From NCBI GenBank assembly GCA_951406725.2, contig OX597819.1:67642001-67706000 (forward strand): DNA of 64,000 nucleotides, given 5' to 3'. Under the pieces are notes generated by a model, which saw nothing but the letters and a program-made list of their open reading frames with translations, was not told the origin of the DNA and searched no databases. Every line of letters starts with the position of its first letter. The stretch's first letter is position 1. Source of the stretch: Octopus vulgaris (Eukaryota). The position numbers and the translations under genes were made by a program. This document shows positions 8,132-41,830 of this stretch, in pieces.

Positions 8132-8176
8132 TGAACCCGAAGATTGCAGAATTCAATGCATGAAAGTACTAGTTCA
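8132..8176 (+). ncRNA. Minimal type I hammerhead-like motif (variant core)
   Basis: tgaac-CCGAAGA-t-tgca-gaattcaa-tgca-t-GAAA-gtac-TA-gttca; stem I tgaac/gttca; palindromic GTAC. Confidence 0.6.
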
Positions 8177-8521
8177 ATCAGAATGAATATTTAACATTCT
8201 ACTATTTCATTTTATTTTATTCAATTATAATATATTATCTTATAATATATCATTATAAGATTGTAAATAAAACGTGAAAATCAGACAAGGTTGGAATTCT
8301 TTTTATTAATATATTCTTCTATACACAATCACACACACCCATATATATATATATATATATATATATATATATATATATATATATATATACATATATATGT
8401 ATACCTATAGATAAATATATATATATATATATATATGTAGGTCCCGGGTTGATTCGGGGTTAACCACAGTAAATAAGGTACTCAATACATAGCAGAGTAA
8501 AATTAATTTATTATATAGAAG

Positions 8522-8574
8522 GAGCTTCTACAGGACTAGAACTGTTTCATTCAAGAAAAATCTTCAGGAAGCTC
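8522..8574 (-). ncRNA. Type I hammerhead ribozyme (inverted copy)
   Basis: Reverse complement of 8642-8694, differing by one base in loop II. Confidence 0.78.
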
Positions 8575-8641
8575 CCTGAATTTGATGTTTTTTATCATGA
8601 GGAAGAGGTCTTCTTCAAACGGTTCAAGTAGGCTGTTGGTA

Positions 8642-8694
8642 GAGCTTCCTGAAGATTTCTCTTGAATGAAACAGTTCTAGTCCTGTAGAAGCTC
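8642..8694 (+). ncRNA. Type I hammerhead ribozyme
   Basis: gagcttc-CTGAAGA-t-ttc-tctt-gaa-t-GAAA-cag-ttctagtc-ctg-TA-gaagctc; 7-bp stem I; GUA cleavage triplet. Confidence 0.8.
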
Positions 8695-37972: not shown

Positions 37973-38989
37973 CATATCACGTCCTAGAAAATTTATTGTA
38001 AATAATAAACACATTAAATTAAATACAGTAAAAATCCCATTTGGAATAATGAAATAGGAATGTAAATATATTTAAATTTATTTTCGTTCTCTGATATTGG
38101 CCACTACTGTATATATATATATATATATATATATATATATATATATATATGAACATATATAAATATATATGTATATATGTTATATATATATATATATATA
38201 TATATATATATATATATATATATATATATATATACATATATATACATTAACACACACACACACATATATCACTTGCATCATGAAAAACTATGACGCAACG
38301 ATACTTGAGAGCTTCTCTGTGTGTTCATGCTTTTTGTTTCACTAGAACATTCGAACCTGAAATTCACGTAACATTCTATAATAACCTATGCTTAATGCGG
38401 GTCCGAGTTAGTGGTGAAGAATTTATTATCCAATAAATACAATCATAATTCGAATGATGGACTGAACTTCTTTTTTTTTTATTACTTTCACAGTAATTAT
38501 AAATCAGAGTTTAAAATGTGTTTTCTGTAAATATTATATAAAAGTTATTCACAAATATTGTGAGCTAGCCATCTCTTCAGCACCAAGTAGCATCCACAAA
38601 ACTTACAATTGCTAATTATATGATAGTGGCAATTTCGTTTATTATTACAAGATTCCGTTGATTATTACAAAATTTATGGAACCTCGAAATTATTTGTCAA
38701 ATCTACTTTCGGTGATTGCCAATACAACATCAATTGCACTATAAATCGCTACGGGGTACATTTTGTAATATCTTAACATTAAGAAGTTAAACAAAATTTA
38801 ATAGGAAACAGAAATCATAAATGAATTAGAACACACTATGAAATAAAAAAAATAAAATTTTGCTACTGTTACAGGAAAGCAATTTTTATTATTCTACTTT
38901 TCATTATATCAAAAATAACAAAAATTAATTCAGATTCACGGACTCACAACGTATAAACGTATAAATATATATATATATATATATTGTAA

Positions 38990-39100
38990 ACCTAGTTCTT
39001 ATTCTATCGTTTTTTTTTGCCGAACCGCTATGTTACGGGGACGTAAGCACACCAGCTTTGGTTGTCAATCGATGTTGGGGAACAAACACAGACATGAACA
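38990..39100 (-). mobile_element. SINE family B fragment
   Basis: cttattctatcg...tgccgaaccgcta.gttacggggacgtaagcacaccagc...gttgtcaa.cgatgttggggaacaaacac. Confidence 0.7.
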
Positions 39101-40512
39101 TACACAGAGAAACATATATATATATATATATATATATATATATGTGTGTGTGTGTGCGTGTGTGTGTGTCTGTGTGTGTATGTATGTATGCATGTATGTA
39201 TGCATGAATATACGTGTATATATATATATATATATATATATATATATATATATATATATATATATATATATATATATATATATGTATGTGTTATGTATGT
39301 ATGTATATATACACGAGTCCGAATTAATTTTATATATATACATCGTCAGTAAATCATAAATCCTAAGGAGAAGCACATTCTAATTTATTGAGCAGTAGTA
39401 ATTATAATAAAAAATAGTTATGGCCCGCTTAGAGTCTACTTGGGTTTACGCCTTAAAACTTTTTAGCTGTACAGCGTCTTTTCACCGTCCATTAATGTTT
39501 GAAGATCGCTTTGGGAACAGAATCCAGGAGTTACCCCATTCGGCCGGTGATAGCCATGCTTCTCCAATATATATGATGATGAACTCTCTTGCCGTGAACG
39601 GCAAATTTGAGTTCAGTGAAACGTACTATGGACATAAATATGTCCCTTGAGACCTGCTGGTACCTTCAAAACCCTTTGGCAAATGGAACAAATTGAGGAC
39701 TCACGTTGTTTAAGGATCATATACTATGTGTTTTCGTAAGTGGATGACAAGGCTTGATTGCATCGGACCACAAAGCCATAATCACGGGTAATGCTTCCAT
39801 TTAATTGAAGCAGTATTTTGACGGCGTGCCATGATGCCTGCAAAAATCTGGTCCTGGTGATGGAGTCGTCTTTGCTCAAATTTTTTAATTAAGAAGCATA
39901 GCTGTTGCCAGACCCTGCGCCCTGTTACTTTGTTTTATATATATATATATATATATATATATATATATATATATATATATATATATATATATATATATAT
40001 ATATATATGGATTAGAAATTTGATATAAATTTAATTAACATCAATTTCACACCAGTGGTCCAGCATATAAAGAAACTTAATGTTCAGTAAAATTGTGTTA
40101 TATACATATGTATTGTATACATTACGTAATATGTATGTGGATAATCCATATTTTTATTGCTTTTCTTTTGTCTTGCTCGATTACGTTTTGGTTGTTCTGC
40201 TGCATTTTTCTTGCGATCATTTCTTAGTGGTAGGACCATAGCGGACCTACTTCTAGCATGAGGGTATCCACATAGTGGTTTCCCTCTCATATGTATATAT
40301 ATATATATATATATATATATATATATATATATATATATATATATATATATATATATATATATATATATATGTGTATATATCTATATATGTATGCATATGT
40401 GTTCATATATATGTATGCATATATATATATATATACATGTATATATGCATATATGTGTGTACGTGCGTGTAGATATATATATATATATATATATATGTGT
40501 GTGTGTGTGTAT

Positions 40513-41830
40513 AAGATAAGGGAAGAAATGGAGCAACAGTTAACAATTTGAAGTTGATCATTAGTACCGAATGATCATAGTTTAATGATGGTTAAGATAA
40601 CATTTACAGCTGTTTCAGTTTATATTTTTGTGGTAAGTTTGAGTTTGTCTCGTTCCATGTAACAAATATTATCAGAATGATTTGAACTTTGCCCGAGGGA
40701 TATTGGCAGATCGAAGTCTGACGGAATAAAAAAGGGAAAAAAAGCAAAGTAAAAGAAAAAGGAAAAAAGAAAAAAGAAAAGTTCGAATGGTCTTTAGGCT
40801 TAAATTTTTGTGTTCTGAAAAATGGTACGTGGTTAAACAGTTGCTCAAGCAGCTGAATAGTAAAAAGTGAAAAACTACAGAAGGCTTGTTTTAAAAGGTT
40901 AAAAATTATATATTTGAGTCATAAGTCTGAAGAATGTTATAAATTTTTTTCATACAATGACATAGTTTTTGAAGAAATGACCGGTTTTGCGTTCAGCTTT
41001 TCAAAGTGTGAAAAATAGTTCCAGATAAGGGGAGGTAATAAGTGATTTCTTCCGGTGTAAGGGAGATAACTGCTTAATATTTCTTGCCTTTTTGGGGGAG
41101 TGAGTTTCTCTGTATAAGAATGTTGGAATGGTTGAGTTTGGGCTTGTATTTTTCAATGAAGAATGTTTCCTTGTTTAGTCTAATTTGTGTTGGTGTTCCG
41201 ATCACATCTAATTTTACTTGTACTTCTGCAAACATAATTTATGTCATAAAATGCTCAGGCTGCCACCAAAACTACATGGGTCCACGTGACTATCACTCAG
41301 ACGTAGATGCACACTGCATCGACAACAGATTGCATTCCCAGAATACAGAATGATACCCTTTAGTGAGCACATTGAGAAATGCGCAAAGCAACTACTACCA
41401 CAATTCTTAATCTTTCCATTTTACCAATGTGCTATCGGAACACCTACACAAATTAGACTAATCAAGGAAACATTCTTCATTGAAAAATACAAGCCCAAAC
41501 TCAACCATTCCAACATTCTTATACAGAGAAACTCACTCCCCCAAAAAGGCAAGAAATATTAAGCGATTATCTCCCTTACACCGGAAGAAATCACTTATTA
41601 CCTCCCCTTATCTGGAACTATTTTTCACACCTCTCAACGTAAACATAACGATGTAAGAAATTTGAAAAGCTGAACGCAAAACCGGTCATTTCTTCAAAAA
41701 CTACGTCATTGTATGAAAAAAATTTATAACATTCTTCAGACATAATGACTCAAATATATATTTTTTAACCTTTTAAAACAAGCATTCTGTAGTCTTTTCA
41801 CTTTTTACTATTTTCTATATATTCAACCAC
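40513..41830 (+). mobile_element. PLE 3' remnant: GIY-YIG fragment in the centre of a ~345-bp-arm inverted repeat
   Basis: 41203-41510 encodes NFTCTSANIIYVIKCSGCHQNYMG...HRQQI...IFPFYQ...KETFFIEKYKPKLN (related to the 6696 ORF); 40858-41202 is inverted against 41434-41811; decayed hammerhead on minus strand at 40601-40679. Confidence 0.85.

Follow-up and report, generated by a model that had tools for sequence, protein, structure and literature searches.

Minimal hammerhead motifs in probable truncated and head-to-head Penelope-like element ends at an Octopus vulgaris receptor cluster

A 64,000-nt stretch of the Octopus vulgaris genome (GenBank assembly GCA_951406725.2, contig OX597819.1, positions 67,642,001 to 67,706,000; hereafter the window) carries hammerhead-like sequences in and beside (TA)n microsatellites, which raises the question of whether these are genuine ribozyme motifs, which elements brought them in, and whether they would cut RNA throughout a receptor cluster. 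The hammerheads are mostly confirmed as real; they belong to a kind already described, the hammerhead ends of Penelope-like elements (PLEs), and any RNA cutting by these particular copies is putative. In a preliminary description of the locus, 12 motifs had been listed as type I folds. Hammerhead-related sequence is indeed present at 12/12 coordinates, which fall at 8 loci, but the full fold does not occur at all of them. An intact type I core (CUGANGA, GAAA and UH, with a stem I of 5–8 bp) is found in 7/12, with C3 at 8567(−), 8649(+), 9907(−), 15962(−), 16033(+), 27353(−) and 31041(+). Two motifs have a U4C core (CCGANGA), at 8137(+) and 17063(−), and three are broken: 26812(−) keeps GAAA-CGAUCG-UA and lacks CUGAUGA, 26929(+) keeps CUGAUGA and has lost GAAA, and 40601(−) bears G8A, with C3 unchanged and a predicted fold without stem II. 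This leaves 5/12 mutant or broken. Compared with 200 dinucleotide-preserving block shuffles of the window, a check proposed along with the motif list, intact cores are clearly more frequent: the strict core gives 7 matches at 4 loci versus a mean of 0.03 (maximum 1), and 9 matches versus a mean of 0.065 (maximum 2) when U4C or A6U is allowed.

The motifs differ in detail from locus to locus. A G10.1–C11.1 pair together with an extra base after A9 is seen at 9867, 15902, 16028 and 17033, and 27271 and 31035 have the pair but lack the extra base. Three motifs (8132, 8522 and 8642) have a U·U at the base of stem II; scans that require this position to be paired miss them, and the strict scan used for our counts allows them. 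A relaxed scan gives ~5 chance matches per window at low scores, and its weak matches at 4486, 12189, 13820, 18029, 40927, 42429 and 43749 were dropped as within chance level. No hammerhead is among the 150 of 177 Rfam matches listed, which are microsatellite- or hairpin-driven miRNA and snoRNA matches below gathering scores. As had been claimed, several unrelated families are involved, with no similarity among the 8 loci by self-BLAST. For covariation, the window offers at most 2–3 copies per family; by eye, the outer stem I pair is G–C in 17033 and C–G in 32370.

The proposed PLE origin is borne out directly at 3/8 loci, where the motif has sense orientation and lies downstream of a Penelope-like ORF that is broken, Neptune-type in two cases (6657–7637 and 41090–41505) and Hydra-type in one (27979–29913). 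Reverse transcriptase (RT) together with a GIY-YIG endonuclease (EN) at the C terminus is present at 6657–7637 and 27979–29913, and EN only at 41090–41505. The 5'-truncated Neptune-type ORF (6657–7637, +) begins at (TA)n 6609–6656 and encodes an RT thumb, a Cx4CxxC linker and a GIY-YIG with CCHH (linker and EN motifs KCNDSRCGTC and CIKCPNC). PF01541 scores above cutoff, relatives have RVT_1 plus GIY-YIG, and the best named octopus match, from O. sinensis, covers 60% of the query at 80% identity. Among the relatives, Cx2-5CxxC occurs in 117/120 and CxCx5C in 0/120. The 3' repeat of this PLE holds a type I hammerhead (8132–8176, +) with U4C, the U·U stem II base and a GUAC helix III; its predicted cut falls after 8171, and the element ends at ~8330 at (CA)/(TA)n. 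The second Neptune-type locus is a fold-back of a PLE 3' end (40520–41850) that contains the GIY-YIG remnants, and the decayed 40601 hammerhead sits in its longer left arm, on the sense strand of that arm.

The broken Hydra-type PLE (27245–31149, +) consists of an inverted, 5'-truncated arm (27245–27988), ORF remnants (27979–29913) and a 3' arm (30379–31149), its two intact hammerheads sharing a CAAUUG helix III. The remnants, which tblastn of RT+EN relatives covers, comprise the end of the RT, Asn-rich inserts, a CxCx5C linker (CNCRIRSKC) and a GIY-YIG without CCHH, and the 770-nt inverted arm joins exactly at the 5' truncation point of the ORF (27979–27988). CxCx5C is found in 42/150 relatives, many of which are fragments. 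A full HMMER search with the Hydra-type EN returned 2316 matches, and a word-index search against longer proteins 0/97 candidates. Among public sequencing contigs compared with 26711–31270 the best share was 0.26, and no RNA run is among those listed. The names Neptune and Hydra are assigned here by motifs rather than by an RT tree, the core RT being missing from the copies.

At the remaining 5/8 loci no ORF link is found within the window, and the case for their PLE origin is therefore one of architecture. A head-to-head fold-back flanked by two (TA)n runs (8437–8704; cores 8567(−) and 8649(+)) has the helix III CAG-uuCUAGuc-CUG and a ~70-nt tail on its left arm only. The intact minimal hammerhead at 9867–9912(−), GAAA-CG-UU, has no recognised ORF upstream and, by self-BLAST, a second, partial family copy at 63933–64000. 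A larger fold-back among (TA)n arrays (15644–16204; hammerheads at 15962(−) and 16033(+)) has 189-nt arms that are 98% alike, a tail of ~147 nt confined to the left arm and a 33-nt duplication at its junction (15990–16052). A ~205-nt unit at 16945–17150(−), with (TA)n on both sides, carries the U4C hammerhead 17067–17033, and an old fold-back at 26712–27080, with 72% arm identity, lacks CUGAUGA on the left and GAAA on the right, so that neither arm is a complete ribozyme. The earlier suggestion of protein-free units holds in part: no ORF is found at these five loci, but coding PLEs truncated at the 5' end would leave copies of the same appearance.

Three architectural features noted previously are upheld. 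First, helix III is short and a perfect palindrome at 8/12 sites (8132, 9867, 15902, 17033, 26812, 27271, 31035 and 40601), near-palindromic at 3 (8522, 8642 and 16028) and decayed at 26929. Self-dimers of helix III are predicted at −4 to −15 kcal/mol in 8/8 motifs tested, and it is a supported view that such a palindrome would suit pairing between two copies, as dimers. Second, 11/12 motifs have a (TA)5+ run no more than 300 nt 3' of the cut site, versus 24% of random positions, or 7/8 when counted by locus, the arms of one pair being non-independent; by eye, the element end adjoins a microsatellite in 9/12, the exceptions being 9867, 26929 and 31035. Third, self-BLAST confirms inverted pairs at 8512–8704, 15791–16204, 26712–27080 and 27245–27988/30379–31149. 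Inversion occurs at 5 loci in all, with one-sided tails at 8437–8704 and 15644–16204, unequal arms at 40520–41850 and no tail in the Hydra-type copy. No target-site duplication is discernible in the (TA)n flanks, where duplications are hard to recognise, a difficulty also met by Craig 2021 (10.1101/2021.04.23.441226) in its account of such insertions. We consider it highly probable that several PLE families carry the motifs, as minimal type I hammerheads, in their 3' ends, that the loci are truncated or head-to-head copies of these in (TA)n, and that most genomic copies are likely inert.

This interpretation agrees with what has been described elsewhere. The account of Cervera & De la Peña 2014 (PMC4209133) covers minimal hammerheads, dual opposite-strand motifs 100–700 bp apart and solitary truncated copies, and minimal hammerheads in metazoan PLE pseudo-LTRs (pLTRs) are also credited to Lünse et al. 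in the summary given by PMC6765202. Like those motifs, the present ones have a type I fold, a short palindromic helix III and, in several cases, an extra base between 9 and 10.1, and they fall into many unrelated families within a single genome, mostly as solitary truncated copies or as opposite-strand duals at that spacing. They differ in the greater length of some helices III (10 and 14 nt), in the U·U stem II base of three motifs, which is reported for other hammerheads in passages of PMC3088659 and PMC7229834, and in the U at position 6 of one family, family B. The insertion at 6657–7637 resembles the Neptune-clade insertions outlined by Craig 2021 in its C-terminal GIY-YIG with CCHH, Cx2-5CxxC linker, microsatellite targeting and inverted 5'-truncated partner, although only 3' fragments occur here. 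The copy at 27245–31149 shares with the Hydra-clade PLEs outlined there the CxCx5C linker, the absence of CCHH, the left (TA)n flank, the hammerhead and the molluscan host range; unlike them it is broken, its 3' region measures 1.2 kb, it has Asn-rich inserts of the kind noted for Adineta Penelopes (PMC3846280), and its right end is not at (TA)n. In their arrangement the inverted pairs fit Penelope insertions as published, in which a 5'-truncated copy is joined by an inverted one, the tail is on one side and the target is (TA)n, although the tails here, at ~70 and 147 nt, are longer than the published 30–40 nt.

We envision that insertion would proceed as follows. The GIY-YIG endonuclease would nick AT-rich DNA, as published PLE biology suggests, and RT would begin cDNA internally, ~20–260 nt 3' of the ribozyme, on RNA that is presumably uncut because copies retain the whole core. 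Synthesis would usually halt early, in many cases close to the 5' edge of the ribozyme, and the insertion would be closed by another cDNA, inverted and begun at a different site, so that a fold-back tailed on one side results. A role for the ribozyme would be confined to the source element, where it would cut slowly as a dimer joined by its palindromic helix III or be assisted by an element protein. Cores would decay after insertion, and when transcription reads through a fold-back, the RNA is predicted to fold into an extended duplex in which the ribozyme is hidden. Published precedents include internal RT start, AT-rich nicking and an uncut RNA template, with no need for cleavage in insertion (the portion of PMC11167929 consulted); the inverted 5'-truncated copy, tail and (TA)n bias, along with a Hydra clade with CxCx5C (Craig 2021, in part); and head-to-head pLTRs, Asn-rich inserts and solo pLTRs (PMC3846280, in part).

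Some of the ORF-less units may be discrete non-autonomous, SINE-like families with a putative transcription start of their own, moved in trans by PLE RT and endonuclease, and not chance truncations; we judge the chances of this to be evenly balanced. Such a reading is compatible with PLE stubs and likely applies to family B, which was outside the earlier motif list, and to its relative at 17033 (B'). Family B is a very abundant unit of ~185 nt with a sharp 5' end, the only discrete one seen, and a CUGU-N-GA (A6U) core. Its copies lie at 32283–32466(−), with (TA)n on both sides, a CUGUAGA core and also A at G12; at 22140–22322(+), flanked by microsatellites, with a CUGUGGA core; and at 17500–17620(−), which keeps GAAA-CG-UA and is 5'-truncated or decayed. 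Three copies of ~185–205 nt have microsatellites on both sides, whereas one of three family B copies (17500) is without its 5' part. Family B contigs occur in 4/4 public runs (19,942, 18,840, 7,616 and 3,851, from organisms A, B, D and A), although contig depth is no copy number. Their summed depth drops 9- to 15-fold across 32466/32467, where loose ends agree poorly (0.42), which indicates no common upstream continuation; the aligned stretch extends only 12 nt past the 5' end, into (TA)n. Were RT to halt preferentially at one point on a long coding RNA, a sharp 5' end would likewise result. In a passage of PMC3846280, pLTR sequences are reported to suffice for trans mobilisation. A metagenome scan for the family B motif gave 0 matches.

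In the family B contigs N7 and the loop vary, and stem II has no listed change, absent rows being unreliable here. At 32371, copy 32283–32466 has A for G12 and copies 17590 and 22200 have G, yet the contig comparison lists no other letter there, and several pieces are clipped right at this position; because this variant is missing, absent rows are not trusted and the argument for a fixed A6U is weakened. A literature search for A6U in hammerheads gave one twister paper only, and Lünse et al. or the PMC4209133 supplements may list it. Run X14, guessed to be RNA, has family B contigs too; it may contain DNA, so these are not evidence of expression.

A second alternative, that the units are non-LTR retrozymes amplified via self-cleaved circular RNAs, we regard as very unlikely. 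The animal retrozymes outlined in PMC7229834 and 10.64898/2026.07.22.740005 are likewise non-coding, PLE-related and equipped with type I hammerheads; unit sizes here are 185–400 nt, the latter work reports a PLE origin of retrozymes, including solo monomers, and the former a U·U stem II base in an axolotl retrozyme. Retrozymes, however, are head-to-tail tandem repeats yielding circular RNA, and a circle needs two cuts on the same strand, whereas the units here are single or head-to-head: neither 109 TRF rows nor self-BLAST revealed a head-to-tail hammerhead unit within the window, and the retrozyme framing of the preliminary description is not sustained. Joints from the family B 5' end back to its 3' end could be tandem copies, but the presence of (TA)n at either end of the aligned stretch can account for them.

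It had further been proposed that the receptor cluster is dotted with sites of self-cleavage on both strands, and one could imagine the motifs co-opted to cut host transcripts there, given 7 intact cores in 33 kb and a fold-back beginning ~670 nt past a GPCR stop codon. We find this highly improbable. Host GPCR ORFs, given for context only, lie at 14008–14976(+; single-exon, rhodopsin-family) and 35004–35984(+), and no hammerhead motif falls within one. In the predicted ensemble, the core of the two small fold-backs tested is fully paired with its own antisense arm (unpaired probability 0.0 in 4/4 fold-back strands versus 0.18–0.58 in 4 single copies). Stem I probabilities are low (<=0.07) in the single-copy controls too, and equilibrium folding is therefore a weak guide to activity. 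Co-transcriptional cleavage could conceivably take place if the sense arm were transcribed ahead of the antisense arm; in the head-to-head pairs here the antisense arm always comes first, and a transcript starting inside a pair would escape antisense pairing. Opposite-strand copies cannot act as each other's dimer partner, nor are they two sense ribozymes of one transcript. Moreover, mutant or broken motifs make up 5/12, the PLE hammerheads published in PMC4209133 and PMC11167929 act slowly or depend on protein, and each locus holds a different family, as expected of neutral insertion into microsatellites. That the fold-backs are DNA-transposon MITEs with chance hammerhead matches is barely credible: the long inverted arms and TA flanks are MITE-like and 3 motifs are incomplete, but the strict matches far exceed the shuffles, the arms show asymmetry, tails and duplication at junctions, and the same architecture encloses RT/EN remnants at 27245–31149 and EN remnants at 40520–41850.

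As PLE ends, then, the loci make the window a dense example of a kind described in 2014. We found no paper on octopus hammerheads in the literature searched, and the PMC4209133 account of minimal hammerheads, as far as its consulted portion goes, does not include octopus; Lünse et al. or the PMC4209133 supplements may already list octopus motifs. The word "ribozyme" is absent from the main text of the O. vulgaris repeat paper PMC13282606, and the value for annotation stems from the fact that such stubs are probably hidden among repeats classed as "unclassified SINE", "MITE" or "unknown". Should family B turn out to be a discrete unit in which A6U is fixed, it would offer a natural test of what PLE hammerheads are for. 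A bolder proposition, which taken as a whole we consider possible but doubtful, is that family B is a discrete SINE-like family of very high copy number in octopus genomes, ~185 nt in length and mobilised by Penelope, whose fixed non-canonical core (A6U, N7 free) would be a new active natural variant or a fold kept for protein binding, and which, with the head-to-head stubs, would be a major unrecognised source of perfect dsRNA behind octopus hyper-editing. Perfect fold-backs could serve as input to ADAR editing; octopus has exceptionally high levels of such editing according to the part of PMC5625713 consulted.

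We scanned the window with a descriptor that combined CUGANGA, GAAA and UH with minimum stem lengths of 4 bp (stem I) and 3 bp (stem II) and required helix III to have a closing pair. This strict search returned seven type I hammerhead motifs at four loci (C3 position and strand: 8567-, 8649+, 9907-, 15962-, 16033+, 27353- and 31041+), versus a mean of 0.03 and a maximum of 1 in 200 block-wise dinucleotide shuffles; permitting the core substitution U4C or A6U added 8137+ and 17063-, bringing the count to nine versus 0.065 in shuffles. The preliminary description had listed 12 motifs at eight loci, and no strict match lies outside that list across the 64 kb. 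Seven of its motifs are intact and two are variants, while the other three are incomplete as ribozymes: 26812 (motifs here named by start coordinate) lacks CUGAUGA, 26929 lacks GAAA, and 40601 carries G8A and has no stem II. Helix III is perfectly palindromic at 8 of the 12 sites, and a self-duplex through it is predicted for all eight motifs examined. Eleven of 12 motifs (seven of eight loci) have a (TA)5+ run no more than 300 nt downstream of their cut site, compared with 24% of random positions. No hammerhead appears among the 150 of 177 Rfam matches listed for the window.

These motifs belong to the hammerhead type already described from Penelope-like retroelements (PLEs); the copies themselves are new. 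Published work reports genomes with many hammerhead families, truncated copies standing alone and opposite-strand dual motifs spaced 100-700 bp (Cervera & De la Peña 2014, PMC4209133); an inverted 5'-truncated copy, a tail and a preference for (TA)n, as well as the Hydra clade (Craig et al.); head-to-head pseudo-LTRs (pLTRs), Asn-rich inserts, solo pLTRs and in-trans mobilisation (Arkhipova et al., PMC3846280); and inverted pLTRs regarded as routine (Goubert et al., PMC8969392). The retrozyme framing proposed earlier is not supported in this window: retrozymes are described as head-to-tail arrays (PMC7229834; 10.64898/2026.07.22.740005), whereas the tandem-repeat listing and self-BLAST revealed no head-to-tail hammerhead array among the window units.

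A same-strand Penelope-like ORF is tied to the motif at three loci (8132; 27271/31035; 40601), and none was found at the remaining five of eight. Motif 8132 lies downstream of a 5'-truncated PLE ORF (6657-7637) that begins in (TA)n; the RT thumb, Cx4CxxC linker and CCHH-bearing GIY-YIG domain of this ORF are Neptune-clade marks. One retroelement ORF in the window is 80% identical to an Octopus sinensis protein over 60% of its length, its remaining named matches, from bivalves, being at 45-52%, which points to an octopus as the probable host. The longer arm of a fold-back at 40520-41850 contains motif 40601, which has GIY-YIG remnants upstream of it. Weak tblastn matches to Neptune-type proteins at 61614-61858 (-) mark a tentative further decayed PLE fragment. 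Motifs 27271 and 31035 lie in 770-nt arms, 94% alike, flanking a broken PLE ORF (27979-29913) whose HMMER-found relatives align over the RT end, linker and endonuclease. This ORF has CNCRIRSKC and lacks CCHH, the marks of the Hydra clade of Craig et al., and its truncation point coincides with the junction of the inverted arm. Inside it, 28308-29500 holds a 213-nt tandem duplication and Asn-rich inserts, the latter also known from rotifer Penelopes (PMC3846280).

Small head-to-head pairs without an ORF occupy 8437-8704, 15644-16204 and 26712-27080. The first two carry one-armed tails of about 70 and about 147 nt, respectively, and the junction of 15644-16204 bears a 33-nt duplication. At least one arm begins within about 15 nt of the ribozyme 5' edge in all three small pairs and in neither of two large fold-backs, a pattern biased by considering only hammerhead-bearing copies. 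Truncation, inversion, tails and (TA)n flanks are directly visible; the insertion steps that would lie behind them we infer from published PLE work. In the work of Frangieh et al. (PMC11167929), nicking is AT-rich and reverse transcription begins at two internal sites, which accounts for the tail; the template is mainly uncut RNA, and the hammerhead depends on the protein and is dispensable for insertion. Window copies retaining the whole core agree with this picture.

Part of the 15644-16204 tail (15655-15710) resembles 40010-40075 beside (TA)n, where no hammerhead was seen. More short fold-backs lie at 43302-43553, 57739-57830, 57947-58002, 9079-9140 and 21469-21508; scans for a hammerhead in these found none. 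Another (TA)n-flanked repeat family (25400-25830, 62655-62945 and 63440-63640) has CUGAAGA-stem-GA(A/U)U on the minus strand of its first two copies (C3 25501 and 62752), with no clear GAAA-UH found in the family; at 63518-63638, inverted arms enclose a (TA)n run.

Working cut sites had been envisaged throughout the receptor cluster, a proposal that our analysis leaves unsupported. Read-through RNA from either strand of the two intact small fold-backs is predicted to fold with energies between -130 and -356 kcal/mol and to pair the core completely, compared with an unpaired core probability of 0.18-0.58 in four single copies. That fold-back pairing would hide the core is only indicated by this comparison, since stem I is also poorly formed in the single-copy controls. 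Opposite-strand copies are unable to serve as mutual dimer partners within one transcript, which, together with the predicted core pairing, makes the genomic copies likely inert as ribozymes. In PMC4209133, a monomer did not cleave and dimer cleavage was low. The fold-backs are better viewed as potential long double-stranded RNA; exceptional hyper-editing and dsRNA potential are reported for octopus (PMC5625713).

The part that merits genome-wide study is family B, a very abundant hammerhead-like repeat of ~185 nt absent from the earlier list, with copies at 17500-17620, 22140-22322 and 32283-32466. These and the related, listed 17033 unit share a design of about 185-205 nt with a GAGC/GCUC stem II and a CG helix III, and microsatellites flank both sides in three of the four. 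The segment 32271-32478 aligned to 19,942, 18,840, 7,616 and 3,851 contigs in four public sets, under three organism labels. Summed contig depth drops 9- to 15-fold at 32466/32467, where loose ends are discordant, suggesting a discrete 5' end. The contigs also contain a subfamily whose 5' part is pyrimidine-rich and of different sequence (loose ends behind 32395). Two of the three window copies have a CUGU-N-GA core. Position 7 varies in the contigs (two other letters at 5-32% each) and no position-6 change is listed, yet this absence does not prove position 6 fixed, because the table is equally blank at G12, where copy 32283-32466 differs from the other two. Our literature search turned up no A6U; the substitution may be treated in the supplementary material of the 2014 paper or by Lünse et al. 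According to Perreault et al. (PMC3088659), A6C is slow, U4C weak yet viable, and a U.U at stem II tolerated.

The surrounding sequence is AT-rich animal DNA packed with microsatellites. Intact single-exon rhodopsin-type GPCR ORFs lie at 14008-14976 and 35004-35984, and decayed paralogues of both at 20150-20500, 32700-33010, 42340-43000 and 58510-59700; the cluster thus has the look of an array shaped by birth and death of genes. Non-LTR retrotransposon fragments (2070-5268, 48100-49760 and 52395-54170) show zf-RVT below cutoff and RVT_1 at 52637-53446. Several SINE-like repeat families, of putatively tRNA-like appearance, occur at 7890-7975; at 17166-17307, 18363-18522, 44443-44598 and 62447-62616; and at 10661-10838 with relatives, some of the families adjoining (TA)n or (AAT)n.
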